From NCBI GenBank assembly GCA_041663045.1, contig JBAZRH010000002.1:193946-257945 (forward strand): a DNA stretch of 64,000 nt, given 5' to 3'. Positions 4,801-47,473 of this stretch are shown piece after piece. Each line of letters begins with the position of its first letter. The stretch's first letter is position 1. This DNA is from Minisyncoccota bacterium. Its GTDB lineage: Bacteria; Patescibacteriota; Minisyncoccia; Phycocordibacterales; GWA1-40-21. Below the pieces are notes generated by a model. The model was not told where the DNA came from. It ran no database searches and saw nothing but the letters and a program-made list of their open reading frames with translations. Made by a program: the position numbers and the translations under genes.

Positions 4801-4816
4801 GAGAGGCAGACAAGTT

Positions 4817-5737
4817 CTACCTCTCTTTTTTCTTTATATATATAAAGGCGTATTTATAACCGAATAATCTAATAAATCTACAGAAAGCCTCAAAAAAATT
4901 CAGTTTGGTAATGGCTTGAGTCAATTCTTTAAAAAAATAAATCGTAAGATAAACCTCTTTTTTATCATAAAAATTCTCTAAACCTCTTTTTTTTACCATA
5001 ATATAATCAGATATCCCTTGCCAAAATAATCTGCGAGTCATAAATATTCTTGTTAGTCTCTTCTCTTTAATTTTCGACCAGACCTCTGCTTGTGGCTCAT
5101 ACCAAACCATACTTTGCGGAATTCTAATCAAAAATTCTGTGTCACCATTAGACAATAGATTACCACCCTTTCTATCTAAGTCTGGATCAAACATACCAAA
5201 TCTTTTAAATGTCTCTCTTTTAAATGACATATTTGCACCTATTATAAAATAAGGTGCATAAAGATGTCCTGCTTGTCTGGGGAAATTAGGAGGTAAAAGG
5301 AATCGAAGAAAGTAATTTGAAAACCAAACAGGCCATTTTTTTGTCTCTTTATCTTTAACAAAAACTGGACCGCCAACACAAAGTATATCCTGTTCACTAT
5401 AACCACACACAATGTTTTTAGCCCAATGTTCAGACACAATGACATCATCGTCTAGGAACGAAATTATATCTGCCACCGCTTCAGTAATTCCCGTATTCCT
5501 GGCATAATTCAAACCAACCCTTTTTTCTTCTATTATTTTGACCTTATTATAGTTTCTAAGTTTTAAAGTGCCTGAATCCACAGAAAGAGAATTTCCATTA
5601 TCTACTATAATGATTTCCCTAATATATTTTATGTTAGAAGTCGTTGATAAAGAACACACTAAATCTACGAGATCGGTTAATCTTTCTTCATGCTTATATG
5701 TAGGAATGATTACAGTTATTAAATTTTCTTGTTGCAT
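4817..5737 (-). CDS. glycosyltransferase family 2
   Basis: ITVIIPTYKHEERL...IIVDNGNS...DDD motifs of the GT-A fold. Confidence 0.8.
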   Translation of the reverse strand: MQQENLITVIIPTYKHEERLTDLVDLVCSLSTTSNIKYIREIIIVDNGNSLSVDSGTLKLRNYNKVKIIEEKRVGLNYARNTGITEAVADIISFLDDDVIVSEHWAKNIVCGYSEQDILCVGGPVFVKDKETKKWPVWFSNYFLRFLLPPNFPRQAGHLYAPYFIIGANMSFKRETFKRFGMFDPDLDRKGGNLLSNGDTEFLIRIPQSMVWYEPQAEVWSKIKEKRLTRIFMTRRLFWQGISDYIMVKKRGLENFYDKKEVYLTIYFFKELTQAITKLNFFEAFCRFIRLFGYKYAFIYIKKKER

Positions 5738-7572
5738 ATTATTTCCTTAATTTTCATCTTTACTTCCCTCATCTTTAAATCGGTAGTATCAATATAAGAA
5801 ATTTTTATAGGTAAAAACTTTTTAAGTTCATTTTTATAAAATTCCTTAAAATAACCTAAAAATGTTGGATCAAACCAGTTCTTATATTTAATATTTTTAG
5901 AGTAAATTTCTCTTCTTTTCAGACTCTCTTCAATCGAAACATCTAAATATATCAGATGGGTCGGAAAAGTAATTGTATGTTTTACTTTTTCATAAACTTC
6001 GAGCAATGATTTGTATTCATTTGGAGTATTATTTACTTTTGATCTTGCATAGCAATAAGCCAATGTTGTAATAAAAGTCCTATCCAAAATAACTTCCGAA
6101 TATTTTCTATCAATATTATTAATAAAATCGGTTTTATTCTTTTCTATAATTAAAAATTGTCTTGATGTTTCAAGATTATCCTTATTCAATATCTTCTCAT
6201 CTTCTATTTGGAGTTGGGGGATGAATAATTTTTTTTCATCGCTTACATAATTCTTTATGAAAGTCGTCTTTCCCGCACCGGGCATCCCCTCTAGAGCTAT
6301 TATTTTTTCTAAATTATACGTCTCAACTGTATTTCGATTCAAGATAGAGAAAGAAAAATCTTTTGGTAATTCATCTGAAGATATCTCTTTAAAACGACGC
6401 TTTTCAATAGCTTCTTGAAGCCAAACAGGCTCTTTATTTGCCATCGCCTCATTATCTTTACTTGGCCTTTTGACATTAGGAGTATTTAAAACTTTTTCGT
6501 ATGTCCTAATTGTTTGTTTAGCAATTATATTCCAATCATAGTATTTTTTTATTGCAGAATATCCCTTTTTAGATATACGAGTAAGTTTCTTTTTGTCCTT
6601 TAATAGATCAATTATCTTTGTCGTATACTTAGAATAGTCATCCTCGATCAAAAAATAATCTTTTCTATTAAACCCAGCGGTAGCTATACTAGTTGTTAAG
6701 ATTGGAATACCCGCGGCTAAATAATTCAGTAGCTTTATTCGCATGCCCGTTCCTTCATTAATAGGAGCTAGAGCAAAAGTAGCATCTTTAAAGAGTTGAT
6801 TTAAATCAGGGATGGTCCCTATAAAAGAAAAACTGGGTGCAGTACATTCTTTTTTAAGATTTGGAGGGCAATCACCGGCGATTGTAAATCTAAATCCATG
6901 CTTTTGTAGCTCTGGATATATTTGATTCCTTATCACACGCACAGCATCTTCATTTGGTTTAAAATATAAATTACCGAGGAAAACTATATTTTTCGCAGTG
7001 AAATTTGGTTTATTATACTTTAACTCCTTACAATCAACACCGCTCGGAATCACAGATATCAATTCTGGTCTAATTTTCATATACTCCATAAGAGATGGTT
7101 TATCTTGGTCACTTAAACAGATTAGATGATCTATGGATCTACCGACTTCTTTCTCAATATTCTTAATCTCATTTAGCCTAGACATGTTCGCACCAAGTTT
7201 TTTGGCAAGATTTCTTATTACATAATGCATCTCGCTGATTAATTTTGTTCCAGTTAATTGTGCTAAACGTACACCTTGAAGTAAAATTGGTTCCAAATTA
7301 TCAAATTGAATGATGTCGATAGACTCTTTTCTAAGAATGGAAGCGATCAATTCCAAATTATTATAATAGTTTTTTATTGGGAAAATGTAAGTCTTGAAAG
7401 GTTCTTTTTTTATTAAAGATATATCAGACCACTTTCGATACCCATGAAAAATAACAACATTTACATCGTTTAACGCTAAATGTCGTGATAAATAATGAAA
7501 GCGATTTGAAGCACCATCATAAGAAGGAATAAAATCCCCGTCTACAAATATTGCAATATTAATTTTTTTCAT
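5719..7572 (-). CDS. fusion protein: N-terminal GT4 (GT-B) glycosyltransferase plus C-terminal Tmk-like P-loop kinase domain
   Basis: N-terminal GT4 features ending in the E..G..EG motif (PINEGTGMRIKLLNYLAAGIPIL). The C-terminal ~230 aa carry Walker A GMPGAGKTT and the LDRTFITTLAYCYA motif, and are paralogous to 4249..4800. Confidence 0.7.
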   Translation of the reverse strand: MKKINIAIFVDGDFIPSYDGASNRFHYLSRHLALNDVNVVIFHGYRKWSDISLIKKEPFKTYIFPIKNYYNNLELIASILRKESIDIIQFDNLEPILLQGVRLAQLTGTKLISEMHYVIRNLAKKLGANMSRLNEIKNIEKEVGRSIDHLICLSDQDKPSLMEYMKIRPELISVIPSGVDCKELKYNKPNFTAKNIVFLGNLYFKPNEDAVRVIRNQIYPELQKHGFRFTIAGDCPPNLKKECTAPSFSFIGTIPDLNQLFKDATFALAPINEGTGMRIKLLNYLAAGIPILTTSIATAGFNRKDYFLIEDDYSKYTTKIIDLLKDKKKLTRISKKGYSAIKKYYDWNIIAKQTIRTYEKVLNTPNVKRPSKDNEAMANKEPVWLQEAIEKRRFKEISSDELPKDFSFSILNRNTVETYNLEKIIALEGMPGAGKTTFIKNYVSDEKKLFIPQLQIEDEKILNKDNLETSRQFLIIEKNKTDFINNIDRKYSEVILDRTFITTLAYCYARSKVNNTPNEYKSLLEVYEKVKHTITFPTHLIYLDVSIEESLKRREIYSKNIKYKNWFDPTFLGYFKEFYKNELKKFLPIKISYIDTTDLKMREVKMKIKEIICNKKI

Positions 7573-8644
7573 GATAAATTTGATTAACTTTTTCTAAAAC
7601 CTCCTCAATATTTATATCATCTTTTTCAAATAAGATAGAATCGCATTTCTTTTTACCATTCATGCACATACCAAAAAATGGGTAAAAATTCTTGCAAGAA
7701 AGCATGTGTTTGCTACTTACATAATTAAATTTATTTGAAGATCCTCCCCACATCAATGGAGATGTAGTTACATAAATTCCGAGCGATTTTATACCCATGG
7801 AATCACAGAGATGTATTAATCCAGAATCCACAGAGATTAATAAAAATATGTCTCGTAGTGATTCTTCCAATTCATATAGGTTCGTTGGTTTTAATATTTT
7901 TATTTTATTTTTGGTAAAGCTTGGTAAATCCGATATAACTTTATTAGTATATAATTTTTCATTTTCACTAAACCCCTCATATATTTCTACCTTCCTATCA
8001 GATAAAACAAGAGAAGAAATAAGTTTTGCCCATTTTGTAACTTCCCATAATTTAAAAACGCCACCGGAATGCATATTAATCAAGATACTTTCTGGATCAT
8101 TAATTATAGGAAAAAATAACTCAAAGATAGAAGTATCATAAATGAGTTTTTGATTTGTTCCCTTTTGAAGGATTTTTAAAATTATATCTCTAATATTAGT
8201 ATTAGTTTTTTCATCGGCGGTCAATGTTTCGTCATCATAAAAGTTAATCTCACTATTTTGAGTAACAAACCAATCTTTAAAATCATAATAACCTTTCTCG
8301 AAACGACGACCGACAGTACGTAAATTCATAACGACTTTAATATCGTTTTGCTCAAGAAACACACTAATTTCTTTCCAATAATTCCTAGGAAACTTTCTAA
8401 AATTATTGTCTATAATTTTGAAATTGGATGGGGCCTGTATATTTCCTTGGGTAAGATTGCCAGAAAAAAAAAGATTCGTAGTATAAAAAAACAATGATTC
8501 TGGCATTTTCTCTCCAATTTCTTTAAAAATTGGATAATATATCACTCCGTCGCCTAAACCATCAAAAGTTGTAATCAAGTAATTCATAAGGGTGTCATTA
8601 TTATTGACATTAACTAATATATCATGTAGCATACTTAATTGCAA
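7559..8644 (-). CDS. glycosyltransferase family 9 (heptosyltransferase-like)
   Basis: VDSGLIHLCDSMGIKSLGIY resembles the GT9 signature NDSGLMHLAAALG..V.LFG. Confidence 0.6.
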   Translation of the reverse strand: MQLSMLHDILVNVNNNDTLMNYLITTFDGLGDGVIYYPIFKEIGEKMPESLFFYTTNLFFSGNLTQGNIQAPSNFKIIDNNFRKFPRNYWKEISVFLEQNDIKVVMNLRTVGRRFEKGYYDFKDWFVTQNSEINFYDDETLTADEKTNTNIRDIILKILQKGTNQKLIYDTSIFELFFPIINDPESILINMHSGGVFKLWEVTKWAKLISSLVLSDRKVEIYEGFSENEKLYTNKVISDLPSFTKNKIKILKPTNLYELEESLRDIFLLISVDSGLIHLCDSMGIKSLGIYVTTSPLMWGGSSNKFNYVSSKHMLSCKNFYPFFGMCMNGKKKCDSILFEKDDINIEEVLEKVNQIYHEKN

Positions 8645-8660
8645 TTAATGTATATTTCAT

Positions 8661-9419
8661 ATGCCTAAATTAAAAAAAGAGACTGTTCTAACAGACAAAG
8701 AAAGTAGAAAATATCGAGGTGTAGTTTTTGATTTTCACTTTACGATTGCCCATTTTTATCCATCAAGGGAAAAAGTGTATGAAAAAATTTTTAATAAATA
8801 CGGGTTTACTAATTCACCAAAAGATATTGCCAGAGCTTTTTCTAGGGCATGGTTAAAATATACAGACAAAGAACTTATCGAGGCTTTCAGCCAGCAAATT
8901 GATATACCCTCTATGGAAAATTGGTGGCTTGAATTTCATTCTGGAGTTTTTATGACATTGGGAATAGAAGATAAGAAAATATTGGAATTGATAAATAAGG
9001 ATATTTCTGACCTTGTGTATAAAGATTCTTCTATCTATCGTTTATATCCGGATGTCTTAGAAACGCTCTCTTTCCTAAAGAAAAAAAAGGTTAAGATTGG
9101 AATGATAACTAATGCTCACGGTACAATCCGAGAAATTATTAATGAATTGGGCATAACAGAATATTTTGATTATATAACGATCTCTTGTGAAGTCGGGCTT
9201 AGCAAACCTGATCCTAAAATCTTTGAATATACATTTGAAAAAATGGGATTGCATAATAAAGATGTGTTATTTGTAGGAGACAGTTATCATACTGATGTTG
9301 TTGGCTCTGAAATCGCTGGATGTGCCATCGCCATCATTGATAGAAAAGATAAGGATGGGAAGAAACTGAATAAATACCTACACCTTAATAATTTAACTCA
9401 GATTAAAAATCTGATCTAA
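8661..9419 (+). CDS. HAD-superfamily hydrolase
   Basis: N-terminal VVFDFHFT (motif I variant) and C-terminal FVGDSYHTDVVG (motif IV). Confidence 0.55.
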   Translation: MPKLKKETVLTDKESRKYRGVVFDFHFTIAHFYPSREKVYEKIFNKYGFTNSPKDIARAFSRAWLKYTDKELIEAFSQQIDIPSMENWWLEFHSGVFMTLGIEDKKILELINKDISDLVYKDSSIYRLYPDVLETLSFLKKKKVKIGMITNAHGTIREIINELGITEYFDYITISCEVGLSKPDPKIFEYTFEKMGLHNKDVLFVGDSYHTDVVGSEIAGCAIAIIDRKDKDGKKLNKYLHLNNLTQIKNLI

Positions 9420-9455
9420 TTGGGGATCTACCGCCTTTTTTAGATCTCAAACTTT

Positions 9456-9986
9456 TTATTTTCCTGCTTCTTTTTTGGCTAAAATTAAAACTCCATTAAC
9501 AAACTCACTCTTCCCACTAATGTACGAATCTTTTCCTGTTGGATTATTCTTTAATAACTTTTTCTTTAATTTTTGGTATTCATCTCTCAAATCAGAATGT
9601 TTTCTCAAGTAATCTCTAAATAATATCTGTCTTTCCCAAAAGCCTCCTTTGTCAGTATAGGCAATAGAAAGATGAAATTCTGTAGGATTACCTTTCCTAA
9701 ACAAGTGCCTTTCCGCACTGGAATTTAGCTTATCATAGGAATATCTGAATCCCTCAAGTGGTTTGATAAAAGCATCAGCATCTTTTTGATTCTCTATCAT
9801 TACTGCAATATCAATAATTGGTTTTGAAGCTAACCCTTCAATAGATGTACTGCCAATATGTTCAATAGCGATTACTTTATCACCAAATATTTCTTTCAAT
9901 TTACTTTTTTCTGTCTCAAATCTGTCTTTCCAAGATGATTGATAAGATATTAAGATTGCATGTGATGAATCGTTCATAAAATACAT
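9456..9986 (-). CDS. grpB: GrpB-family protein (UPF0157, nucleotidyltransferase fold)
   Basis: IEHIGSTSIEGLASKPIIDIAVMIE signature. Confidence 0.8.
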   Translation of the reverse strand: MYFMNDSSHAILISYQSSWKDRFETEKSKLKEIFGDKVIAIEHIGSTSIEGLASKPIIDIAVMIENQKDADAFIKPLEGFRYSYDKLNSSAERHLFRKGNPTEFHLSIAYTDKGGFWERQILFRDYLRKHSDLRDEYQKLKKKLLKNNPTGKDSYISGKSEFVNGVLILAKKEAGK

Positions 9987-10436
9987 TTAAAGATCAGTAA
10001 AAATTTCTTTTATTTTTTCCTGAGTATCTTTTAATTGCCCATCAAAAAACAGATAATCCTTCAATTGCTCAAAAGGTATCCACTTATAAAATCTAACCTC
10101 TCCTTTTTTTGGTTGTATTTCATTATTAGTTCCAATAAATCTAAATCCAAAAAAATACCGTACTGACCCTTCATATTCAATCCCATCGCGATTCAACTTA
10201 ATTACTTTGAATTTGAACCTGACGGGGATATTGCTTTGGCCTACAATCTTAAGATGTTCTTCTTTAATTCCCAACTCTTCATTTAACTCTCGGTACACCG
10301 CATCCTTTAGTGTTTCGCCCTGCTCAACCCCTCCACCAGGAATTGCAAAATACTTGTCTTCAAAAGACTCTAAATTGACTAAAAGAAACTCGTTCTTTTT
10401 ATTGATGATAATTGCTGAAACTCCTTTTCTAAACAT
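9987..10436 (-). CDS. NUDIX hydrolase
   Basis: Nudix box GGGVEQGETLKDAVYRELNEELGI. Confidence 0.85.
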   Translation of the reverse strand: MFRKGVSAIIINKKNEFLLVNLESFEDKYFAIPGGGVEQGETLKDAVYRELNEELGIKEEHLKIVGQSNIPVRFKFKVIKLNRDGIEYEGSVRYFFGFRFIGTNNEIQPKKGEVRFYKWIPFEQLKDYLFFDGQLKDTQEKIKEIFTDL

Positions 10437-10520
10437 GGATTAATTAAAAATTATTTATAAATCATAAAGGTTGCTTTTCCTCATACCATCTGGTATGTAT
10501 CTAAAGAAGATGATAACACA

Positions 10521-11174
10521 TTACTCCCGCTCTTGTATCGCATAATCAATTCTGGTTTTTGCTCCACCTAGTATTGGATCGTCTAGTGAACAGAGTGGCC
10601 TCAGACCTTTACTTGAATATTCTAGCGTTTTGAATAAATATCCAAGAAATGAACCCGTATAACGATAACGAAGGATACATCCTTCAATTTTCTCCTCTAT
10701 GGGGTCAGAATAACCTCTCCAACGCCAAATTTGAGGGTATTTATCAATCCAATCATCAACTATGTATCTAATCCAAGAAATCAGTTCTCTTTGGGCTAGT
10801 GCATTTCCTTTCTGGGAAATTCTCACAAGGGCAACAATAATACGATCACGAATATGCCGGTCTTTCTCGTGTTGAGGCGACATGAATGTATAAAGTTTAT
10901 CCTTATATTTATTCAGTATCCTATCAACCTCATCTTGATTATCATATGGTTTGGCTTGCTTCCGACGATATCGTATCCAACGCTTTTGTAGATATCTGTG
11001 TAAATGACTTGTAACTCTGTCCCAATCTATAGAATTATTTTCCGTTCTGACATTTTTCTGAATATGACGGTAAACATTAGGAGTGCTAGCTAGTATCCAA
11101 GAGGGACTAAATTCTTTTGGTTGTTTTTCTTTAAGTGATTGACTAAGAATTTTAATCGCTGTATGAAAATGCAT
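10521..11174 (-). CDS. hypothetical protein (basic, Trp/Arg-rich)
   Basis: 217-aa ORF with no recognisable motif; lies directly downstream of tRNA-Lys and its terminator. Confidence 0.4.
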   Translation of the reverse strand: MHFHTAIKILSQSLKEKQPKEFSPSWILASTPNVYRHIQKNVRTENNSIDWDRVTSHLHRYLQKRWIRYRRKQAKPYDNQDEVDRILNKYKDKLYTFMSPQHEKDRHIRDRIIVALVRISQKGNALAQRELISWIRYIVDDWIDKYPQIWRWRGYSDPIEEKIEGCILRYRYTGSFLGYLFKTLEYSSKGLRPLCSLDDPILGGAKTRIDYAIQERE

Positions 11175-11201
11175 TTATTCTATTTTATCATTCAAGTAAA
11201 A

Positions 11202-11221
11202 CCCCGCTAGGAATAGCGGGG
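11202..11221 (-). terminator. intrinsic terminator hairpin after tRNA-Lys
   Basis: CCCCGCT-AGGAATA-AGCGGGG followed by a T-run on the minus strand. The hairpin 3' arm resembles the tRNA-Lys 3' end (ATTCCTAGCGGGG versus ATTCCTACTGGGGG). Confidence 0.55.
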
Positions 11222-11283
11222 GTTAACTTGACGACACGAAAGAAATGCTCTGTTGAGCCACCTCGGTCGGTCTCACTACGATG

Positions 11284-11356
11284 TGCCCCCAGTAGGAATC
11301 GAACCTACGACCATCTCCTTAAAAGGGAGCTGCTCTACCAACTGAGCTATGAGGGC
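11284..11356 (-). tRNA. tRNA-Lys (anticodon UUU)
   Basis: Cloverleaf with D-arm GCTCAGTTGGTAGAGC, anticodon loop CTTTTAA, T-arm GGTTCGATTCC and acceptor GCCCTCA/TGGGGGC; no CCA encoded. Confidence 0.85.
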
Positions 11357-11406
11357 ATATTTTCCGATACCGCAAAAATATAACAAGAAATTGAACAAAA
11401 GTCCAC

Positions 11407-12153
11407 TTACAGTTCCAAAATAAACTTTTCCAAAGCCACATAAAAATCCGTATTTCCTCTGTGCGCTTCGTGATACATAAAGACAAGTTTCTCGGCGATA
11501 GTTTCTAGCTCACCGTCTTTAGAAAAATTTCTCCCATATTCACGAGCTTTTTGAAATGGATACGGTTTCATATTTGCTTCGGCTGGAGTTTTGCACTTTT
11601 TTGCCAAGAGCATGCTTTTGATTTGCCAGAAAAATATCCCATGCACTTCCTCGGCTGGTACTTGCTCGGCGAGAGCATCTTGATATAGCACCCAAAGCCC
11701 CCTTTTATCTCTCTTTCCTAGTGCATCGGCGAATTCAAAGAAATCTATTTTTTCGCCTTTCAGCGCCAGTGCTTGCTTTTTTGTCAGAGTTTTTTCTGGC
11801 TTGATAAATTCTTCCACTTTTTCGGCATTTTTTTCTATTTTCGCCAGACTTGTCTTGTCCATCTTGCCTTCAGCAAATATAAAAATATTTTCAGACTTCG
11901 CAATATCTTTTATATCTTTCAAAATCAATTCTTTATTCTCTTTATTATCAAAAGTTTTATGGAGATAGATTAAATATTTATTATAGAAAAGTGCTTGCGT
12001 ACCGATAAGTTCATCTATTCTTCCTTGTGAAAGTGGCTCATCACCGATTTTTATAAGTGTTGCCCCCTCGTGCTTTTTCAGCGAAGAATCCACCGTAATA
12101 TTGGCTTTTCGGCTCGCCTTTTCTGTGTCTGTCCCGTAATAAAAGTAAATCAT
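11407..12153 (-). CDS. holA: DNA polymerase III delta subunit
   Basis: MIYFYYGTD N-terminus and a C-terminal delta-subunit-like helical region. Confidence 0.55.
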   Translation of the reverse strand: MIYFYYGTDTEKASRKANITVDSSLKKHEGATLIKIGDEPLSQGRIDELIGTQALFYNKYLIYLHKTFDNKENKELILKDIKDIAKSENIFIFAEGKMDKTSLAKIEKNAEKVEEFIKPEKTLTKKQALALKGEKIDFFEFADALGKRDKRGLWVLYQDALAEQVPAEEVHGIFFWQIKSMLLAKKCKTPAEANMKPYPFQKAREYGRNFSKDGELETIAEKLVFMYHEAHRGNTDFYVALEKFILEL

Positions 12154-12872
12154 AGTAGTATTTTTACGGCTATAGCTATAGCTGCGGTTTCTGCGCGGAG
12201 AACTGGCTCACCGAGTGAAATCGCTTCAATCTTTTTTTCTTTAAAAAATTCCCGTTCCTTTTCTGTCCAACCGCCTTCTGGGCCGATCAATACACCGATT
12301 TTATTGCCGGAAATTTTTGTCGCCGAAAGTGGTTTGTCCGAGAAATCCAGTGTAAAAAGTGTCCCGTCAAAATCCTCAATCGCCACAGCAAGCTCTGCCG
12401 GCACAAAAATTTCTGGCACTCTTCCCTTGCCCGACTGCTCGCTCGCCTCTTTTGCTATTTTTTGTAATCTCTCAATATTCAAATCTTTTTTCTCGCTCCT
12501 TTCCGAAATTATTGGGTGAAAAGATGCTGCACCTATTTCTGTGCATTTTTGGACTATAAGTTCAAAATTATCTTTTTTAATTATCGATTGGAAAATGTGT
12601 AGGGCGATTTTCGGCTCGGCGACTGTTTTTTTCTCCCCCACTTTCAAAATCGCTTCCTTTTTTGTAAGCAATTCAAATTCTGTTTCATATTCAAAACCTG
12701 TACCATCAAAAATAATTATTTTGCTTGCCCCGTCAAATTGATTTTTATTTGGCTTGGGGTCCCCAGCTTTTAAGCGAAAAACTTTTCCCCATTGGTTTAA
12801 AAGCTCAGAATCGTCAATTCTCAATTTATCCCCCTGTATTCTTTGATTGATATAAAATCTGTGTAATCGCAT
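12150..12872 (-). CDS. rsmE: 16S rRNA (uracil1498-N3)-methyltransferase RsmE
   Basis: MRLHRFYI N-terminus, GPEGGWTEKE, and C-terminal LGEPVLRAETAAIAI (SPOUT knot). Confidence 0.8.
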   Translation of the reverse strand: MRLHRFYINQRIQGDKLRIDDSELLNQWGKVFRLKAGDPKPNKNQFDGASKIIIFDGTGFEYETEFELLTKKEAILKVGEKKTVAEPKIALHIFQSIIKKDNFELIVQKCTEIGAASFHPIISERSEKKDLNIERLQKIAKEASEQSGKGRVPEIFVPAELAVAIEDFDGTLFTLDFSDKPLSATKISGNKIGVLIGPEGGWTEKEREFFKEKKIEAISLGEPVLRAETAAIAIAVKILL

Positions 12873-13005
12873 AACAGAAGTGTAGAACGAAAAACGAAAA
12901 AATCAAAATCTCTTTTGTCTTGACTTATGGAATACTGATGCTAATCTGGTTTTAGACAATGTTTGTGAGATCATTGTGATTTCACTCAAAAGCAAGGAGA
13001 TCGCT

Positions 13006-13401
13006 ATGAGTTCAAGTTATAAGTTTGATGGGCGACGAGTGGACCTTAAGGTTATGTCAGATGTCGCAGGCATCTCGACGAAGGATATTTACCTCGCAAT
13101 GGAAAGGTGGACGAAGGGAGAACAAGACAAGCGCGAGGAAATCGAAGAAGAAGATCAACACCTGCACGATCAGCTCAATAAGGCCAAAACTATCGAAGAG
13201 ATTGATCAAGTTATTGATGCCTGCCCAATGAGGGCTGGTGAATTGCTGATTGAGGCGAAGTATAAAAGGCATGCTTTGTGGCTTCAAATGCTACGGCATG
13301 CCAAGAGCAAGAAGGTAGTGATTGACTTGTTTATCCGTGCCAATGACAGGCAGGATCAATATTACGCCATTCAAAAGCTCTCGGAGTTCTTTCAGGTTTG
13401 A
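13006..13401 (+). CDS. hypothetical protein (G+C visibly above flanks)
   Basis: Probable start at MSSSYKF preceded by AAGGAG; followed by terminator hairpin CGGGTCGTGC-AAAGTAG-CACGACCCG-TTTT at ~13421..13450. Confidence 0.45.
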   Translation: MSSSYKFDGRRVDLKVMSDVAGISTKDIYLAMERWTKGEQDKREEIEEEDQHLHDQLNKAKTIEEIDQVIDACPMRAGELLIEAKYKRHALWLQMLRHAKSKKVVIDLFIRANDRQDQYYAIQKLSEFFQV

Positions 13402-13551
13402 TTTGTGTGGTCAACACAACGGGTCGTGCAAAGTAGCACGACCCGTTTTCTTGTCAAACTTCCTTTTTTGATGTATCTTTGAATTGGTTGTTTATTCGTA
13501 GCCATTCGTTGTATTAGTACCATTCGTATATTAGTATTTTAATTTAAAAAT

Positions 13552-14127
13552 ATGTCATACTTAATCCCAACAGTAATTGAGAAAAGCCAGTTTGGCGAAA
13601 GAGCTTTTGATATTTATTCAAGATTGCTCAAAGAAAATATCGTTTTCCTTGGTGGGCCGATAGATGATGAAACGGCCAATATCGTCATTGCCCAACTTCT
13701 CTTTTTACAATTTGAAAATCCAAAGAAAGATATTCAGCTTTATATCAACTCCCCTGGAGGTTCTGTTTCTGCGGCTCTTGCCATCTTGGACACGATGAAT
13801 CATGTGAAGAATGATATTTCGACAGTCTGTGTGGGACTTGCGGCTTCAGCAGCAGCTCTCTTGCTCTCTTCAGGAAAGAAAGGAAAGAGATTTGCCTTAC
13901 CAAATTCTGAAATAATGATTCATCAGCCGATGGGTGGTGCGCAAGGGCAAGCTTCTGATATTGAAATCACGGCGAGGCAGATTTTGAAATTGAAAGGTAA
14001 ACTAACGAAGATAATCGCTGAAAATACAGGTAAAACAGTTGCGCAAATAGAAAAAGATTCTGACAGAGACTACTACATGTCAGCAGATGAGGCGAAGAAG
14101 TATGGGGTGGTGGATAGGGTGTTGTAG
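13552..14127 (+). CDS. clpP: ATP-dependent Clp protease proteolytic subunit
   Basis: [41 protein letters not shown] plus the catalytic-region segments MIHQPMGG (His) and [11 protein letters not shown] (Ser, GxSxG-type). Confidence 0.9.
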
Positions 14128-14175
14128 AAGATAGATTCACGATTCAAGATTCAGGAATTAAGAATAAATACAAAA

Positions 14176-14200
14176 GGCGGGCGCGCTTCGCGCGCCCGCC
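14176..14200. terminator. bidirectional intrinsic terminator (clpP and the convergent thrH-like gene)
   Basis: GGCGGGCGCGC-TTCG-GCGCGCCCGCC with an A-run upstream and TTTTGTGTTGTGTTTT downstream. Confidence 0.8.
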
Positions 14201-14214
14201 TTTTGTGTTGTGTT

Positions 14215-14820
14215 TTAGAGTATTTTGGAAATTATTTTTTTCAAATCGATGTAAGTCTGTGCTACTTCAATATTCTTCTCTTGTTTTAGGAGTTTGGGTG
14301 ATGGCCTGAAGAGTATTCCTTTTTCAGCGCCTTTTAGCATTTTCAAATCGTTGAAGCTGTCCCCTATTGCAATCGTGAAATATCCGGCTTTTTGAAATCT
14401 CTGTATCATTTCTATTTTCCCGTCCTTTTCTCGGAGTTTGTATCCGACAACATTCCCCTTTCTATCCACCTCAAGAGTATTTGCAAAAGTAAGCGGATGG
14501 CCGAGCTTTGCGATGAGTGGCATTATGTAATCATAAAAGCTTCCGGTAAGTATGAGAGGCTGTGCCACACCGGTATCTCTGATCCACTTTACAAATTCTC
14601 TCGCGCCGAGAAATGGTTTCATTTTCGCTACAACTTTTTTTATTTTTTCAATATTATATTTATTTTTTTTCAAAATCTTAATCCTCATTTGCATGAGTTT
14701 GTCATAATCCGGAATATCTCTCGTGGTCAAAGCAAGCTCTTTTATGCCTGTGACGATAGCAAATTCTTCCCAGAATTCTGGTATAAGCACACCTTCAAGA
14801 TCCATGCATATTAATTTCAT
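14215..14820 (-). CDS. thrH: ThrH-like HAD phosphoserine phosphatase
   Basis: Near-collinear similarity to Pseudomonas ThrH: MKLICMDLEGVLIPE, TTRDIPDYD, GDSFND and GILF. Confidence 0.75.
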   Translation of the reverse strand: MKLICMDLEGVLIPEFWEEFAIVTGIKELALTTRDIPDYDKLMQMRIKILKKNKYNIEKIKKVVAKMKPFLGAREFVKWIRDTGVAQPLILTGSFYDYIMPLIAKLGHPLTFANTLEVDRKGNVVGYKLREKDGKIEMIQRFQKAGYFTIAIGDSFNDLKMLKGAEKGILFRPSPKLLKQEKNIEVAQTYIDLKKIISKIL

Positions 14821-15122
14821 ACTGTAATATATAACACAAAATGGCGGTTTTGGCTTGTCCGCCTAGGGCGTGACGAAGCGAAACCGCCATTTTGTGTTGT
14901 TTTCCATGACTTTTCTACTGGTAGGGACGGCAAGCCCGACTCGGCTGATTTTCCTAGACATTTCCCTCAAAATGCGATACTATTATCCTGTTAGCAATTT
15001 AATTTTAAAGATTCCGTTTTTTCAGATTTTAAGCAAGCAGTATGTTGTTAAAAATGAAATTAGTTAGTGAAAACATAAAGCAGGTGAAAAAACTCTAAAG
15101 GGGCGAAATCTTTTTCGCAATT

Positions 15123-16652
15123 ATGTCATTAAAAATAGTAATTCTTCTCGCAGGCCTTGCAGGTCTTTTCGGCATTGCGATAGGTTACTTCTTGCGACTT
15201 ATCATCTCTCTCGGTAAGAAGGGATCAATGGAACTTGAGATCCGACAGATGATGCTAAGCGCCGAGGAGAAAGCCAAGAAGATAATTATCGACGCGGAGA
15301 CGAAGTCCGTCGAGGTAATGAAAGAGATCAAAGAAGAAACACGTCAGAGGGAAGAAAAATTTAAACAAACAGAAGACCGTCTTATAAAGAAAGAGGGACT
15401 TTTGGATGGAAGACAACAGGATATAGACAAAGAAGTAGAGAGTCTGAAGCAAAAAGTCGTTGAAATCAAGGAAATTCGCGATAGAGCCGACAAACTTGAG
15501 ACACAGAAACTTGGAGATTTGCAATCTATTGCAAAGATGACTGAAGAAGATGCAAAGACTTCTCTGCTTGGAGCGATGGAGAGAAAATATGAAGAAGATT
15601 TGCTTGGGAGAATGAAAAAGCTTGAAGAGAATGGTGCAGAGAAAATGGAACACAGAGCTCGCGAGATTCTCGTCACATCGATTCAGAGACTTTCTACATC
15701 TGTTGCACCGGACATTATGTCTACGATGCTCAGTATTCCATCCGATGAAATGAAAGGAAAGATTATCGGTAAAGAGGGTAAGAATATTAAAGCCTTTGAA
15801 AGAGCTACTGGTGTTGAGGTTATAGTAGATGACACTCCTGGTGTCATCACCATCTCCTCTTTTGATCCGATCAGAAGACAAATAGCTAGAGTTGCTCTTG
15901 AAAACTTGCTCATGGACGGCAGAATACAACCAGCGAAGATTGAAAAGATAGTTGAAAAAGCTCAGCAAGATATAAACAAGATAATCAAAGAAAAAGGCGA
16001 ACAAGCTGTATATGAATGCGGAATTTTGAATCTTGACCCTAGGGTTATACAGATTCTCGGTAGACTACACTTTAGAACAAGTTATGGGCAAAATGTTTTG
16101 CAACACTCCATAGAAATGTCCCATATTGCAGGTATGATAGCTGAAGAAGTTGGTGCAAATGTGCAGGTAGCAAAAGCCGGTGCGCTTGTGCATGATATCG
16201 GAAAAGCACTCGATCATGAAGTTGCAGGGACACATGTCGAAATCGGTAGAAGGATTTTACAGAAATTCGGTGTGAGCGAGGAGATCATAAAAGCCATGCA
16301 GTCTCACCATGAAGAATATCCAGCTGAAAATCTTGAAGCTGTGATAGTCACTGTGGCGGATGCGATATCTGGTGGAAGGCCGGGCGCAAGAAGCGATAGT
16401 ATTGAGAATTATATAAAGAGATTGCAGGAGCTTGAGGCTTTGGCAAATTCATTCCAAGGGGTTGAGAAATCCTACGCTTTGCAGGCAGGGCGAGAAATAA
16501 GGATTTTTGTCACTCCGGAGCAGATTACGGATATTGAAGCCAAGAAAATGGCTAGAGATATAGCGGATAAAATAGAGAGTGATCTCAAATACCCTGGAGA
16601 AATCAAGGTTACGGTGATAAGAGAGTCAAGAGTAATAGAATACGCGAGATAA
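15123..16652 (+). CDS. rny: ribonuclease Y
   Basis: N-terminal TM helix, coiled-coil, KH domain (IGKEGKNIKAFE) and HD domain (HDIGKA). Confidence 0.9.
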   Translation: MSLKIVILLAGLAGLFGIAIGYFLRLIISLGKKGSMELEIRQMMLSAEEKAKKIIIDAETKSVEVMKEIKEETRQREEKFKQTEDRLIKKEGLLDGRQQDIDKEVESLKQKVVEIKEIRDRADKLETQKLGDLQSIAKMTEEDAKTSLLGAMERKYEEDLLGRMKKLEENGAEKMEHRAREILVTSIQRLSTSVAPDIMSTMLSIPSDEMKGKIIGKEGKNIKAFERATGVEVIVDDTPGVITISSFDPIRRQIARVALENLLMDGRIQPAKIEKIVEKAQQDINKIIKEKGEQAVYECGILNLDPRVIQILGRLHFRTSYGQNVLQHSIEMSHIAGMIAEEVGANVQVAKAGALVHDIGKALDHEVAGTHVEIGRRILQKFGVSEEIIKAMQSHHEEYPAENLEAVIVTVADAISGGRPGARSDSIENYIKRLQELEALANSFQGVEKSYALQAGREIRIFVTPEQITDIEAKKMARDIADKIESDLKYPGEIKVTVIRESRVIEYAR

Positions 16653-22389: not shown

Positions 22390-22592
22390 ATATTAAAAGA
22401 TATTAGCATAAAAGTTGTAACGAAGCGAGGGATAAAAATTTTTGTTAGGGGTGGCGAGCCTGCCCCTTTTGAAATGCCTTGGGAGCGCGACGGCGCGAGC
22501 ACGAGGAATTTTTTAGCAAGAAAATATCCGTGCATTTCAAAAGGGGCAGGTCGACAGGACCCCGTGAAAATTTTTATCCAGACAAGCCTCTC

Positions 22593-24131: not shown

Positions 24132-24523
24132 TAGATGAATTTTAGCAGATATTTTGATAAAAAGAAAAGCGCACTTCCCGGAGGTCATGCGCGATTGGAG
24201 AATGAAACACATCAGAGGCACTTCAGTGTGTTAGGAAGTGAAGGATTGCAATCCCCACAATAAACAGAAACACAATCGAAAATGCTTTGACGTTGTCTCG
24301 GTTGGTCAGGAAGAGATATATTCTCGACTTAAAGAACTCTTCTTCTGCGTGATGCTGTTCGTTCTGTACGTGCGTAAACGGAGGTGTCGGAGGCATTTTG
24401 TCCAGTCCTTTCTTAATGTGCTTTTTTCACAGTGTGATTACTGTAAAAATCATCAACTTTGATAACTAATTAATAATATCAGCCTTTAGACAATATGTCA
24501 AACTAACTCATATTTTTATTTTG

Positions 24524-24595
24524 TGCGCTCGGCAGGACTCGAACCCGCAACAACAGTTCCGAAGACTGTTGTGATATCCATTTCACCACGAGCGC
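24524..24595 (-). tRNA. tRNA-Arg (anticodon UCG)
   Basis: Acceptor GCGCTCG/CGAGCGC, D-stem GTGA/TCAC, anticodon stem ACAGT/ACTGT with loop CTTCGGA, T-arm GCGGGTTCGAGTCCTGC. Confidence 0.85.
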
Positions 24596-24756
24596 AATAT
24601 TAAACTCCCCCATTAGGATTCGGTCACGACTTTTGCTCGGCCGTCGCCATCGCAAAGTCTCGACCCCGACTCGCTTCCAATCCTGCTGGCTTAGGGCCCG
24701 CTCCGTCCTTTAAATCTTTCGCAAGTAAAGACTTTTACTTGCTTTCTAAGATTTAA
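24596..24756 (-). repeat. GC-rich tRNA-associated structured element (family member)
   Basis: In tRNA orientation it contains GGAAGCGAGTCGGGGTCGAGAC, a stem-loop CTTTTGC-GATGGCGACGGCCGAG-CAAAAG, and ends GTGACCGAATCCTAATGGGGGAG; G+C far above flanks. Confidence 0.6.
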
Positions 24757-24809
24757 ACCCACAACAACAGTTCCGAAGACTGTTGTGATATCCATTTCAC
24801 CATGGGAGC
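24757..24809 (-). pseudogene. partial tRNA copy: D-arm and anticodon arm identical to tRNA-Arg(UCG), with a different 5' acceptor strand and no T-arm
   Basis: 41 nt identical to the tRNA-Arg body; acceptor 5' strand GCTCCCA. The element's terminal AATGGGGGAG could pair with it. Confidence 0.55.
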
Positions 24810-24896
24810 ATTTCATCATAATACGCTAAATTGGCTAAAAATCAAAAAACAATTTTGTTTTTTTATAAAATTGTGTATAATACAAAAAGTAAATTT

Positions 24897-43875: not shown

Positions 43876-45477
43876 ATGTCCTTTGCAAAAACTTTTAGCG
43901 CACAGACCGTCGGTTTGGGTGCAGAAATTATTGATGTAGAAGTTGATTTATCAAAAGGTTTACACTCCTTCTCTATTGTGGGCCTCGGAGATAAAGCAGT
44001 AGAAGAGTCACGTGATAGAGTTTCGGCTTCTATTAAAAATTGCGGTTACAAATCTCCTAAAAATAAGAATCAGAAAGTTGTTGTTTCACTAGCTCCAGCA
44101 GATGTTCGCAAAGAAGGTCCGGCTTTTGACGTAGCCATATCACTTGCATACCTTTTGGCGGATGGGGAGATCAAATTTGATTCAAAGAAGAAACTTTTTC
44201 TTGGCGAGCTTTCTCTTGATGGCAAACTTAGGAAAATAAATGGCGTTTTGCCGATTGTGGCAGAGGCAAAAAGGCGAGGTTTTGAGGAGGTCTTTTTGCC
44301 AAAAGAGAATACAAAAGAAGCAGCGCTAGTCTCTGATATAAATATTTATGGTGCAGAAAATCTGGGGCAGATAATCGGCCACTTGGATGAAGGCGATGCT
44401 CCAAGAAAAGGGAAGTCAAGAGAAATTGACCCAGAGACTTTTGAAGCAGAAGATGAATTTATTTCGCAGAAAATAAATCCAGAACCGCAGACAGAGATTC
44501 TCGTAGAAGAAGACGAAGCTATAATAGATTTTAGTGAAATCAAAGGTCAGGAAACTGCCAAAAGAGGGCTTGAAATAGCCGCCGCTGGCGGACACAATAT
44601 CGCTATGTATGGGCCACCGGGGACAGGCAAGACAATGCTTGCAAAAGCATTTAGTCATATTCTTCCACCACTTTCTTTCGATGAAATACTGGAGATAACA
44701 GCCATACATTCTGTGTCTGGAAATCTGAAAAAAGATATTATTTCGAAACCTCCCGTCCGCGCACCACATCATACCTCTTCTTATGTTTCACTTGTCGGTG
44801 GAGGCACAGTGCCAAAGCCTGGGGAGGTGACACTTGCTCATGGCGGAGTGCTTTTCTTGGATGAATTTCCAGAATTTGATAGGAAAGTTATTGAAGCACT
44901 CCGTGAACCACTTGAAGAAGGGGAGATCACTATCTCTCGTGCCCGAGGTTCACATGCTTTCCCTGCCAATTTTATTCTCATCGCCGCCATGAATCCGTGC
45001 CCTTGTGGAAACTTTGGCTCAAAGACAAAAGAGTGTATTTGTAAGCCGACAGATTTGCTTCGATATCAGAGGAAAATCTCTGGGCCGATAGTGGACAGAA
45101 TAGATATGTGGGTGGAAGTCTCGCAGATAAATTATGAAAAGCTCGGTGAGAAAGAAAATATTAAAAAAGAGACGGCCGATATAAAAAAGAGGGTGACAAA
45201 AGCGAGAGAAATCCAAAAAGAGAGATTTACTGCTGGAAAGAGAAAAATTCGCACAAATAGCGAAATGGAAGCCAAAGATATTTTGAAACTTGCCGACTTG
45301 GAAGACAAAGCTAAAGGTATTTTAATTTCTTCCGCAAGAAAGCTAGATCTTTCTGCTCGTGCATATCACAGGGTTATAAAACTCGCGAGAACCATTGCTG
45401 ATCTTGAAGGGAGTGAAAGTATAAAGACAAATCATATCTTGGAGGCGTTGCAGTATAGGCCGAAGAGGAATCAATAA
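43876..45477 (+). CDS. comM: Mg-chelatase-like AAA+ ATPase YifB/ComM
   Basis: N-terminal Lon-like domain, Walker A GPPGTGKTML, C-terminal Mg-chelatase region. Confidence 0.85.
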   Translation: MSFAKTFSAQTVGLGAEIIDVEVDLSKGLHSFSIVGLGDKAVEESRDRVSASIKNCGYKSPKNKNQKVVVSLAPADVRKEGPAFDVAISLAYLLADGEIKFDSKKKLFLGELSLDGKLRKINGVLPIVAEAKRRGFEEVFLPKENTKEAALVSDINIYGAENLGQIIGHLDEGDAPRKGKSREIDPETFEAEDEFISQKINPEPQTEILVEEDEAIIDFSEIKGQETAKRGLEIAAAGGHNIAMYGPPGTGKTMLAKAFSHILPPLSFDEILEITAIHSVSGNLKKDIISKPPVRAPHHTSSYVSLVGGGTVPKPGEVTLAHGGVLFLDEFPEFDRKVIEALREPLEEGEITISRARGSHAFPANFILIAAMNPCPCGNFGSKTKECICKPTDLLRYQRKISGPIVDRIDMWVEVSQINYEKLGEKENIKKETADIKKRVTKAREIQKERFTAGKRKIRTNSEMEAKDILKLADLEDKAKGILISSARKLDLSARAYHRVIKLARTIADLEGSESIKTNHILEALQYRPKRNQ

Positions 45478-46058
45478 GAACTCCCTCGCATCACCACTTT
45501 TCTGTGCGGAGAATTTCCCAGCGGAAATTCTCCTAATCCTCGGCGGTTTCCGTCGTGGTATACTTTTGTTTCAAGACATACTTTCAACAAAATTACACCA
45601 CGCCGTACCGGCAAACTCGCCTGCGGACACAGAAAAGTGGTGATACTCGGTCGTAGACTTGCAGATACTGAGAAGTGTTCTGATTTTACTTGGGGTTCTC
45701 GGCAATGATGAAAAATGGTGATATTCGCTCGCTTACAGAATTTGGAGGTCTCTCCTCTCTGGTAATTTTGCCTGCCCCGTAGTGAGCTTGCTCTACTACT
45801 TGGGGAGGTGAGACCTCCGAATTGCCACCCCTAACAAAAATATTTTCAATGCAAATCCTCGCTCGCTTATGGAGGGGCAAATCCCTTGACGCACTGTCAT
45901 AATATGATATGCTTTTATATAGATTTATAGCTCCTTGAAAGATAGTGAGATTAGATTTTTGTGACCAAAATATTGGTTATAAAAATCTAATCTCATTAAA
46001 AAAGAGACAAGACGCTAACGTCAGAGCGAAATCTGGCATAACGCAGAAGAAAGAAAGG

Positions 46059-46991
46059 ATGGCTCCGATGTCAACAAAAACATTGGCTCCGTCAGTAGTG
46101 ACCGATCGGGATCCGAAGGGTATGAAGTTCATGGCGATCTGTGCTGCGGCCTACAACAGGGCGGGCCTTAGCCAAGAAGAAGCCCAGCGTGTAAATGAAA
46201 CACCCGGTCTATCAGGCTTGGTGGATCGCTATATCGCGGAGAATCGTGTCCCGAACGAGTTCAAGGGAGAAGAAGTGCCGTCGAAATACGGCTACCTCTC
46301 GGGTTACAAGAAGCCAGACGAAGTGTATATTCAGTGCAAGTTACTTCATGTGTTTTTCCCAGATCTGGGTTCAGCTCCGGCTGGAACAGAAGACTCGCGA
46401 ATCGTCCATCAGTTTGGTCTCGGCAATATTGCCGGTATACCTCTCGCTGAAGGATGGTTTGCCATTCCGAATTGGATGAAGAATCCGCAAATCTTTGGCA
46501 AAACCTATGCCGAAGCCGTGCAGAAGGTGCTCGACATGATCAAGGAAGCTCGCGGGCGGTTGTACAACTACCGCGAAGGTTCGATCGATGAAGCGCATCT
46601 GCGCCAGTCGGCTCGATCCCTCGAGGCATGGAAGAATATCGCCGAAGAGCAAGGCAATCCGGATATTCTGATTGTCGCCGGCCAGTTTGGTCTGCGTCAT
46701 CGGGGACGTTCGGTTCGTCGGGCGCTCGCAGTCATGCCGAAGCAAGGCGAGTTCGGTTTTGGAGCCTTCGCTGTCGGTTGCATGTTTTTGGTGCATCCGA
46801 ATCGCCTGCAGAATTACGACGATCTCTGGATCGATTGCAGTGGCGACGAGTGGAGTCCGGATGGCGATGGTAAGTTCTCGCTCGCGCCCTACTTCGGCTT
46901 CCGCGACGACGGGGTGGAGTTCGACGCGTGTGGTGTCAGCAATGCGGGCGGCTACTGCGGTTCCGCCTCTGGGTTCTTCCCGCAAAGCTGA
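46059..46991 (+). CDS. hypothetical protein of strongly foreign (high) G+C
   Basis: Start at MAPMSTK (AAAGAAAGGA upstream); the track's extra 38 N-terminal residues cover a non-coding inverted repeat. The opposite-strand ORF 46371..46985 is a GC-bias artefact. Confidence 0.5.
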   Translation: MAPMSTKTLAPSVVTDRDPKGMKFMAICAAAYNRAGLSQEEAQRVNETPGLSGLVDRYIAENRVPNEFKGEEVPSKYGYLSGYKKPDEVYIQCKLLHVFFPDLGSAPAGTEDSRIVHQFGLGNIAGIPLAEGWFAIPNWMKNPQIFGKTYAEAVQKVLDMIKEARGRLYNYREGSIDEAHLRQSARSLEAWKNIAEEQGNPDILIVAGQFGLRHRGRSVRRALAVMPKQGEFGFGAFAVGCMFLVHPNRLQNYDDLWIDCSGDEWSPDGDGKFSLAPYFGFRDDGVEFDACGVSNAGGYCGSASGFFPQS

Positions 46992-47071
46992 AACTTGTCT
47001 CTTGAATTCCTTTCGCTGTAAGGTGAAAGAAAGCTACGAGGGCTATTTACATTTCCAGTGTAGGTAGCCTT

Positions 47072-47473
47072 TTATTTTATATTTATCAAGGCTTCTATAA
47101 TTTTCTCTTTATTCCCCTTAAAATCCTTTTTATCCCCCCTTGTCGTCTTTGGATCAGGAATCACCCAGATGTGCGCGTGGGGGACTTCTTCACCGACGAT
47201 TTGGCAACGGACCATATCAATATTGAAAACTTTTTTCTGTGCCAGAGCGATTTTCCTCACAACTTCAAAATATTCTCCGATATTTGGGGACACTTGTCTG
47301 CCTGCGGGCAGATCCCAAACCCATCTATAATGCTCCTTCGGTATTACAAGGGCGTGGCCAGGAGAAAGCGGTCTTATATCCATAAAAGCCAGAAAGCCGG
47401 CATCTTCATAGACTTTTTCCGCCGGTATTTCTCCAGCCACTATTTTACAAAAAATGCAATTTGGGTCTTTCAT
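47072..47473 (-). CDS. HIT-family (histidine triad) nucleotide hydrolase
   Basis: CIFCKI N-terminus and HxHxH motif (HAHIW). Confidence 0.8.
   Translation of the reverse strand: MKDPNCIFCKIVAGEIPAEKVYEDAGFLAFMDIRPLSPGHALVIPKEHYRWVWDLPAGRQVSPNIGEYFEVVRKIALAQKKVFNIDMVRCQIVGEEVPHAHIWVIPDPKTTRGDKKDFKGNKEKIIEALINIK

Follow-up and report, generated by a model that had tools for sequence, protein, structure and literature searches.

Targets of cellular clade 2 of the diversity-generating retroelements (DGRs), a clade restricted to the Candidate Phyla Radiation (CPR), lack recognisable domains (Roux et al. 2021, PMC8144416; compare the 'CPR set' in Wu et al. 2018, PMC5758913). DGR targets that are not adjacent to their retroelement, or are remote from it, have also been documented (PMC5758913). 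TvpA, TaqVP and Mtd are structurally characterised DGR proteins of other lineages. The target of the Bordetella phage DGR contains an initiation of mutagenic homing (IMH) element with a hairpin/cruciform downstream of it (Guo et al. 2011, PMC3240598). Here we describe a gene related to these targets in a stretch of 64,000 nucleotides from contig JBAZRH010000002.1 of a Minisyncoccota bacterium, referred to below as the window. The gene lies between comM and a HIT gene. With a probability of about 0.78, we read it as an orphan Patescibacteria DGR target that possesses its own promoter and leader and was inserted between comM and HIT without the retroelement.

The encoded protein has 1,779 homologues of 45-69% identity, every one from Patescibacteria, and sequence comparison places it in a family of DGR variable proteins that extends across Patescibacteria. 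An earlier note, made from the letters of this DNA alone, had found no recognisable domains in the open reading frame (ORF). At the sequence level this is correct. No curated family in Pfam, NCBIfam or PHROGs matches the protein, the sole match being the sub-threshold DUF4056, and a Foldseek search against PDB and BFVD returned nothing significant. Overall the description falls short, as the protein is a DGR variable protein whose C-terminal half is predicted to adopt a C-type-lectin fold that displays the variable region (VR). The family is nearly missing from viral collections, with two loci in IMG/VR and none in INPHARED; a phage-borne origin of the family was rejected on the basis of just these two loci. 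The ORF probably starts at the ATG at 46068 rather than at 46059, because the Shine-Dalgarno sequence AAAGGA lies 8 nt upstream and the NCBI protein model contains 307 residues. The block AAGGATGGCTCCGATG around the Shine-Dalgarno sequence is kept in relatives.

The DGR signature is found in the relatives. The target family was compared across 80 species-representative loci, denoted by L numbers, and across up to 92 loci in wider comparisons, which together comprise ~0.9 Mb of DNA. Cassettes were counted in 42 fully flanked family loci. A second copy of the C-terminal ~44 codons occurs near the target gene in 37 of the 80 loci, 0.4-0.7 kb from the gene and on either strand. These copies appear as small Asn-rich 'ORFs' flanked by genes for a four-helix bundle and a reverse transcriptase (RT). 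Each pair of template repeat (TR) and VR is ~130 nt long. At the nucleotide level, 765 of the 992 mismatches in the 37 loci fall at TR adenines, and in many loci all of them do (23/23 in L020, 23/23 in L021, 24/24 in L047). Two models recognise Avd of the relatives, Pfam bAvd and NCBIfam DivGenRetAVD (85.6 bits, cut-off 80), and RVT_1 confirms the RT. RT and Avd adjoin the target in 24-25 of the 42 fully flanked loci. The adenine mismatches, together with the presence of Avd and RT in the relatives, are the signature by which a DGR is defined, and the ORF therefore encodes a DGR variable protein.

In the relatives, the TR-Avd-RT cassette 0.4-0.7 kb from the target gene supplies a TR RNA, whose reverse transcription places random bases opposite adenines. 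The cDNA then replaces the last ~130 nt of the target gene, and the overwritten stretch encodes the ligand-binding face of the C-type-lectin fold.

The closest cassette provides a direct comparison for the window copy. In the L083/L085 genome, whose comM is 84% identical, RT, Avd and TR lie directly upstream of the target copy. The window VR differs from the L085 TR by 24 mismatches over 129 nt, of which 21 are at TR adenines, and 91 of the 94 non-adenine positions are identical (97%). Outside the VR, the target gene is just ~77% identical to the L085 copy. This adenine-specific footprint shows that a TR of such a type served as the template for the window VR. The homology between TR and VR stops within a few nucleotides of the stop codon, next to which are the conserved 3′ flank and a hairpin; the cognate TR is absent from the 64-kb window. 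The window copy would represent a self-contained expression cassette, composed of promoter, leader, Shine-Dalgarno sequence, coding sequence with VR, 3′ flank and terminator (to 47082). Its VR has been rewritten by such an element, which either acted in trans from another part of the genome or was still in place before the TR-Avd-RT cassette was lost.

Two features of the DGRs in the relatives deserve mention in their own right. DGR RT genes are broken by a frameshift or an in-frame stop in L021 (6771-7900), L002 (2500-3918, − strand) and L085 (5855-6951, − strand). The break in L002 comes after a (Glu-Arg)n run encoded by a (GA)n tract, and the same run is present in L021. Of the RT homologues in the protein database, about one in two is a ~200-residue half. 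The breaks could reflect slippage-controlled RT expression or an assembly artefact. In L085, the neighbours of the DGR and its target (4270-16577) include a serine recombinase, a terminase large subunit and a ParB-methyltransferase, and the region looks like a prophage-like or integrative element.

The target genes share an upstream region with a fixed layout. Within 200 nt, a near-consensus TTGACA/TATAAT promoter is followed sequentially by a GTTCTTTGAAA block, a long hairpin, a GAGACAAGNCG block, a small hairpin and the Shine-Dalgarno sequence. The near-consensus promoter is present in 35 of 42 family loci, with the end of the −10 element 27-35 nt 5′ of hairpin 1; this distance is 32 nt in the window. 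Hairpin 1 has the family consensus ATGAGAYGAGC...GCTCRTCTCAT and the loop of hairpin 2 the consensus GAGCGAAU. A covariance model (R1) was built from a MAFFT alignment of the family upstream regions. R1 matches 5′ of the target in ~62 of the 80 loci, on the + strand, with 27-92 bits and much lower reverse-strand scores, and has no match in ~70 kb of unrelated comM loci.

The two hairpins are supported by covariation. RNAalifold analysis of the MAFFT alignment identifies compensatory double changes at 16 of the 22 pairs of hairpin 1. The window contributes three full compensations, with TTAGA/TCTAA in place of the usual CGAGC/GCTCG. In an alignment fitted by the covariance model, which is biased toward the model and includes reverse-strand shadows, 24 of 27 leader pairs covary and 90% of cells are paired, versus 31-46% in slid controls. 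The 15-bp inverted repeat that the earlier note had recognised before the gene is the core of the 26-nt arms of hairpin 1. The proposal that a structured 5′ element belongs with the gene is therefore true for this gene-proximal hairpin, as judged by covariation and R1 matches. Rfam scans of 45400-47150, run at gathering scores and then at E <= 10, assigned the leader to no family.

With its many G-U pairs and its difference between strands, the leader looks like an RNA element rather than a DNA operator. As hairpin 1 starts ~20-25 nt from the predicted 5′ end of the transcript, the leader most likely mediates mRNA stabilisation and/or translational control. Pairing of hairpin 2 with GCUCCG before the start codon was considered and dropped, since by eye it fails in L010, L011 and L004. 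A 10-nt perfect complement exists between the leader at 46002-46011 (AAGAGACAAG) and the sequence just after the stop codon at 46994-47003 (CTTGTCTCTT), and both 10-mers are also present in L002 and L085. A 5′-3′ interaction is possible.

The same leader (48-82 bits) precedes a second, unrelated gene family in L070 (6385-7277, + strand) and L079 (1109-1978, − strand), with ORFs at 6522-7277 and 1109-1897, respectively. The second-family proteins are 251-262 residues long and have no Pfam match, and their genes have a GC content of 0.55-0.58 in hosts of 0.37-0.42. No TR-like copy of their C terminus was found in the L070 and L079 loci. A speculative extension, to which we give rather less than even odds, is that the leader constitutes an undescribed class of cis-acting RNA that marks Patescibacteria DGR targets and is shared by at least two unrelated families with high G+C at third codon positions (GC3). 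Such an RNA might act in expression or in licensing the target for retrohoming, and the GC3 excess would stem from the same biology and not from transfer.

The region downstream of the gene is also conserved. Inspection by eye of the 0-130 nt past the stop codon shows that the family carries 5-8 YCTTGA/CTCGAA repeats at ~10-nt spacing, followed by a terminator hairpin. The array is seen in L003, L004, L006, L007, L024, L028 and many others, and is shortened and diverged in the window (46992-47082). A profile of the post-VR region matches 46926-47101 with E = 2.5e-15. In many cases, a perfect DnaA-box-like TTATCCACA forms the 5′ arm of the family terminator hairpin (GGGTTATCCACAgcgTGGGTAACCC is one instance). 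The 16-pair terminator of the window is at 47038-47072. The homology with L085 spans from ~45886-45899 to 47082, so the transferable unit would extend from promoter to terminator. The coordinates of all features are listed in Table 1.

Table 1. Features of the comM-HIT interval in the window, in 5′ to 3′ order
Feature	Coordinates	Strand	Basis or remark
Distal lineage-specific structured spacer	45478..45885		between comM stop and target promoter
Element 1, multi-branched fold with a perfect 17-bp inverted repeat as closing stem	45490..45644		inverted-repeat search and folding
Element 2, 19-nt arms AATTTGGAGGTCTCTCCTC / GAGGTGAGACCTCCGAATT, branched 47-nt interior	45739..45823	+	inverted repeat and folding
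Terminator-like tail ATTGCCACCCCTAACAAAAATATTTT	45821..45850	+	pairs with GGGG..GGCAAT at 45693-45707 in the minimum free energy structure
Predicted sigma-70-type promoter TTGACG-16-TATGCT, TG before −10	45886..45913	+	promoter scan; family geometry
Two-hairpin 5′ leader RNA motif	45939..46051	+	R1, 78.1 bits, E = 2.5e-15; − strand just 40 bits
Leader hairpin 1, 26-nt arms (45943-45968 / 45973-45998)	45943..45998	+	inverted repeat and covariation
Leader hairpin 2, GTCAG-AGCGAAAT-CTGGC	46020..46037	+	5/5 pairs change on both sides across loci
Shine-Dalgarno AAAGGA	46054..46059	+	by reading the sequence; 8 nt 5′ of ATG 46068
DGR-type variable protein gene, 307 residues	46068..46991	+	helical N-terminal part and C-type-lectin-fold C-terminal half (predicted)
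Variable region (VR)	46856..46984	+	TR-profile nhmmer match, E = 1.4e-16
Conserved 3′ flank CTTGTCTCTTGAATTC..., shortened YCTTGA repeat array	46992..47037	+	post-VR profile
Predicted intrinsic terminator of target gene, 16-pair stem then T-run	47038..47082	+	terminator scan and folding

The base composition of the gene is unusual in the window, as the earlier note had stated. Its GC content is 0.55; the 37 ORFs of >=200 residues in the window have a median of 0.38. Its GC3 is 0.61, versus a median of 0.35 (sd 0.09), and is the top value among the real window ORFs of that size; the other high-GC3 ORFs have no Pfam match and are probably spurious. The antisense ORF said to run across the gene is present at 46371-46985 (204 residues). 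The anomaly is borne out, with GC and GC3 both outside the window norm, but it does not serve as a sign of recent transfer. When the target was compared with the median of flanking ORFs in 77 loci, its GC3 was higher by >0.1 in 73 of them, with a median excess of +0.32 (in L011, 0.66 in the target and 0.19 in the flanks). In these 73, family GC3 is 0.6-0.9 whatever the GC3 of the host, which ranges over 0.19-0.6. High GC is therefore a family trait and no mark of a recent foreign donor. The third positions of the family are composed of A 0.10, C 0.43, G 0.29 and T 0.18, and those of flanking ORFs of A 0.27, C 0.22, G 0.21 and T 0.31. Adenine-specific depletion was rejected as the cause. The excess may come from selection on codons in highly expressed genes, from biased gene conversion or from another gene-specific process.

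The gene occupies a variable position next to a conserved gene order. PNPase, a 350-residue ORF, dksA and comM are kept in this order upstream in relatives with 79-89% comM identity. The slot after comM contains ruvA in L081, a LysM peptidase in L083, and a methyltransferase followed by HIT in the closest relative (comM 89%, contig of P0122). In a relative with 84% comM identity, the order is comM, a 57-nt bidirectional terminator and HIT, representing an empty site (L089/L090). Close relatives have just 49-120 nt after comM. Relative to L089, the 1,594 nt at 45478-47071 of the window form an insertion between comM and HIT. The target in L004 sits elsewhere, between HIT and recJ. Given the variable contents of the slot and the location in L004, the gene was not vertically inherited at this locus. 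The earlier view of a horizontally acquired unit is thus upheld in part: the gene and its upstream DNA are non-syntenic, with an empty site in L089/L090, but the distal structure lies outside the unit and GC provides no evidence.

The distal part of the spacer, between comM and the promoter, is highly structured. The whole 581-nt spacer (45478-46058) folds with a minimum free energy of −210.6 kcal/mol, versus −144 ± 6.8 for shuffled sequences (z = −9.7). The perfect long-range inverted repeat that closes element 1 has arms at 45490-45506 and 45628-45644 and is 17 bp long, one more than the 16 first reported. Element 1 contains the reported hairpin GGAGAATTTCC/GGAAATTCTCC at 45508-45533, with 11 bp instead of 10, and an additional hairpin with ~25-nt arms at 45551-45605. 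The reported pair GGAGGTCTC/GAGACCTCC is located inside the arms of element 2 (45739-45757 / 45805-45823), which are 89% complementary, and the repeated ACTTGGGG and CGCTCGCTTA motifs belong to a direct-repeat family, D1. The closed stem at 45486-45648 folds at −72.4 kcal/mol (z = −11.4) on the + strand and −86.2 kcal/mol (z = −12.2) on the − strand, so element 1 is 14 kcal/mol better on the − strand. Element 2 folds at −44.2 kcal/mol (z = −5.7) on the + strand and −37.3 kcal/mol on the − strand.

The earlier note had suggested a horizontally acquired unit, with a possible 6S-like or other regulatory RNA in the stem at 45491-45643. Spelled out, this would be a gene of recent foreign origin whose donor was GC-rich and which brought a structured non-coding RNA of its own. 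The 1.6 kb are indeed an insertion relative to close relatives, the GC3 of the gene is ~2.9 sd over the window median, and the closed stem folds extremely well. However, a high GC3 shared by 73 of 77 hosts neither dates nor locates a transfer. Rfam scanning of 45478-46058 identified no family, 6S included, and at E <= 10 yielded only chance miRNA and snoRNA matches on hairpins. The fold is multi-branched, unlike the 6S rod with a central bubble, and the stem has no homologue in 92 loci. L085 has the segment from promoter to terminator in common with the window but not the distal part, its homology starting only at the promoter, which separates the distal structure from the gene unit. No other family locus has a comparable upstream repeat, none of their longest upstream inverted repeats reaching 14 bp. 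We regard this explanation as very improbable. No tRNA or tmRNA was found in 45400-47150.

The distal 400 nt have no detectable relatives. Searches of 80-92 related loci with blastn and nhmmer found no homologue, including in the closest cassette, L085. Smith-Waterman comparison of the distal region with the TR spacer of L085 scored under the shuffle mean, two metagenome pattern scans gave zero matches, and a phage database contained nothing similar at the DNA or protein level. The distal region was rejected as a decayed gene, its six-frame translation being blank and without similarity to the post-comM ORF of L091. A retron msr-msd was likewise rejected for element 1: inverted repeats are present, but the window contains no RT gene, and non-coding DNA and the target follow. 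The comM frame stays open for 76 codons past its TAA (45478-45705), through element 1; this is probably due to chance, because comM homologues end at the same place.

One possible function of the distal region is suggested by its location. LOOT RNA (RF03000), a structured small RNA (sRNA) of unknown function, lies beside the target in at least 10 loci with 77-84 bits, including L057 (4372-4501, − strand), L061 (1622-1751, − strand), L066, L024, L036, L078, L072, L054 and L085 (10894-11020). In the first six of these, it is divergent from the target, on the opposite strand and 180-200 nt 5′ of hairpin 1. The distal region might be an independent, lineage-specific structured sRNA and a positional analogue of LOOT RNA. 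The z-scores of element 1 (~−12) and its better folding on the − strand, which suggests G-U pairs, are in keeping with such an RNA. Element 2 favours the + strand, and neither Rfam nor nhmmer detects LOOT in the window. Promoter-like sites are absent from the spacer upstream of either element on both strands, the only site being the target promoter, and there are no homologues for covariation. An sRNA is accordingly an unlikely explanation in our estimate.

Alternatively, element 1 may be a miniature inverted-repeat mobile element or an invertible segment that operates at the DNA level only and has no role as RNA. It has perfect 17-bp terminal inverted repeats (ATCACCACTTTTCTGTG) around 121 bp, for a total of 155 bp, and resides in a variable intergenic slot. 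Its 3′ arm, extended by 9 nt, recurs 78 nt downstream (direct repeat D3), and a serine recombinase is found beside the cassette in L085. On the other hand, element 1 occurs as one copy in the 64-kb window and is absent from the ~0.9 Mb of related loci and from the metagenome contig pattern scan, and no target-site duplication flanks its ends; a miniature inverted-repeat transposable element was rejected on these grounds. There is also no recombinase among the annotated flanking genes (comM, target and HIT), the rest of the window not having been screened. We consider a mobile or invertible element less probable still than an sRNA.

A relation to transcription termination is suggested by two short matches. 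The stem of element 2 has TTTGGAGGTC in common with the bidirectional terminator between comM and HIT in L089. The tail GCCACCCCTAACAAAAAT at 45824-45845 shows a 21/22-nt match to 22434-22455 (− strand), upstream of tRNA-Pro. The tail motif, GCCACCCCTAACAAAAAT(A)TTT followed by ATCC(C)TCGCT-CG-TTA, also occurs in the comM-ruvA spacer of L081 (7585-7609). The shared 22-nt motif resembles the 3′ half of a recurrent terminator module together with its tail, and we infer that the tail at 45821-45850 is the comM terminator. With low confidence, the distal 400 nt may be viewed as the 3′ terminator zone of comM, expanded by palindromic insertions or duplications and lying outside the cassette.

Several points weigh against our reading of the gene as an orphan DGR target inserted with its own promoter and leader. 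No TR, RT or Avd was detected in the 64-kb window with tblastn, blastn or nhmmer profiles: a second VR copy is lacking there, and neither RT nor Avd lies within 46 kb upstream or 17 kb downstream of the gene. Among the best 120 RT matches, no close homologue is tied to the source contig, which is a weak negative. Current diversification of the window copy is therefore only a possibility. The high GC3 is not explained by adenine-specific loss, as T3 falls too and C3 rises most. The related-loci comparisons offer no support for any function of the distal 400 nt, and the putative link of that region to the comM terminator depends on the 10-mer in common with L089 and the 22-nt motif.

Some of these points would also fit a decayed relic that is no longer diversified, its TR-Avd-RT having been deleted in an upstream rearrangement of which the distal DNA is the scar. 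The TR-Avd-RT of L085 sits exactly where the window has the distal region, upstream of the promoter, and the window and the close RT matches yield no RT or TR. Moreover, 15 of the 42 fully flanked family loci (36%) have no TR, RT or Avd within 5 kb. However, the ORF is uninterrupted and retains the conserved promoter, leader and terminator of the family. The 97% identity between VR and TR at non-adenine positions argues for recent rewriting, the distal DNA is unlike the TR spacer of L085, and remote DGR targets are known (PMC5758913). On the evidence of the window, the copy may be a live remote target or a recent relic; we hold the relic, as a full account, to be rather less probable than not.

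Elsewhere in the window, ARAGORN predicts a second tRNA-Arg(tcg) at 24739-24810 (− strand), 144 nt from the one at 24523-24595. It is unreported by the Rfam tRNA model at the gathering score and may be a degenerate or unusual tRNA copy.

With these results, an ORF that had seemed anonymous and 'foreign' can be recognised as belonging to a hypermutation system already known, one enriched in ultra-small CPR bacteria. They also illustrate that a GC anomaly can be characteristic of a whole gene family and does not have to mean that transfer was recent. Two leads emerge for the biology of CPR DGRs, namely a covarying 5′ leader common to target-type genes and a persistent GC3 excess of 0.3 over the host. 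In addition, about a third of the target genes have no nearby cassette, raising the question of trans-acting diversification in genomes of <1 Mb.

Several known systems resemble parts of this locus. Bacterial mRNAs can carry stabilising hairpins close to their 5′ ends, as in the ompA leader. The window leader is similar to 5′ untranslated regions of the ompA type in having a long hairpin near the predicted transcription start, followed by a small hairpin and the Shine-Dalgarno sequence, and in its strand specificity and compensatory changes. It differs in being outside Rfam, in having no known ligand or protein partner, and in preceding two unrelated GC-rich families. LOOT RNA sits just upstream of the target promoter in at least six relatives, at the place of the distal structured DNA of the window. 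However, LOOT RNA is built of four hairpins capped by GNRA loops, element 1 has a different architecture, and the window matches neither its model nor its profile.

The 3′ end of the gene is reminiscent of the Bordetella phage DGR target, as a conserved block and a strong hairpin also lie 3′ of the VR in the window. The window hairpin differs in its position ~50-90 nt past the stop codon, after the YCTTGA array, and would double as an intrinsic terminator.

The closest resemblance is to the DGR variable proteins of CPR bacteria. The window protein shares with them a C-terminal VR in the last ~43 codons, a predicted C-type-lectin fold, and the lack of any recognisable sequence domain or membrane anchor. 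The relatives further share TR/VR pairs that differ at adenines and adjacent Avd and RT. In contrast, TR, Avd and RT are all missing from the flanking sequence analysed around the window copy, and its family displays a host-independent GC3 excess and a conserved structured 5′ leader, neither of which is described in the literature searched. What is new here is descriptive: a conserved, covarying leader outside Rfam, an excess of GC3 throughout the family, and a structured spacer that is specific to the lineage and unexplained. For the most part, the locus can be accounted for by a system of a known kind, namely a CPR DGR target gene that stands as an orphan.

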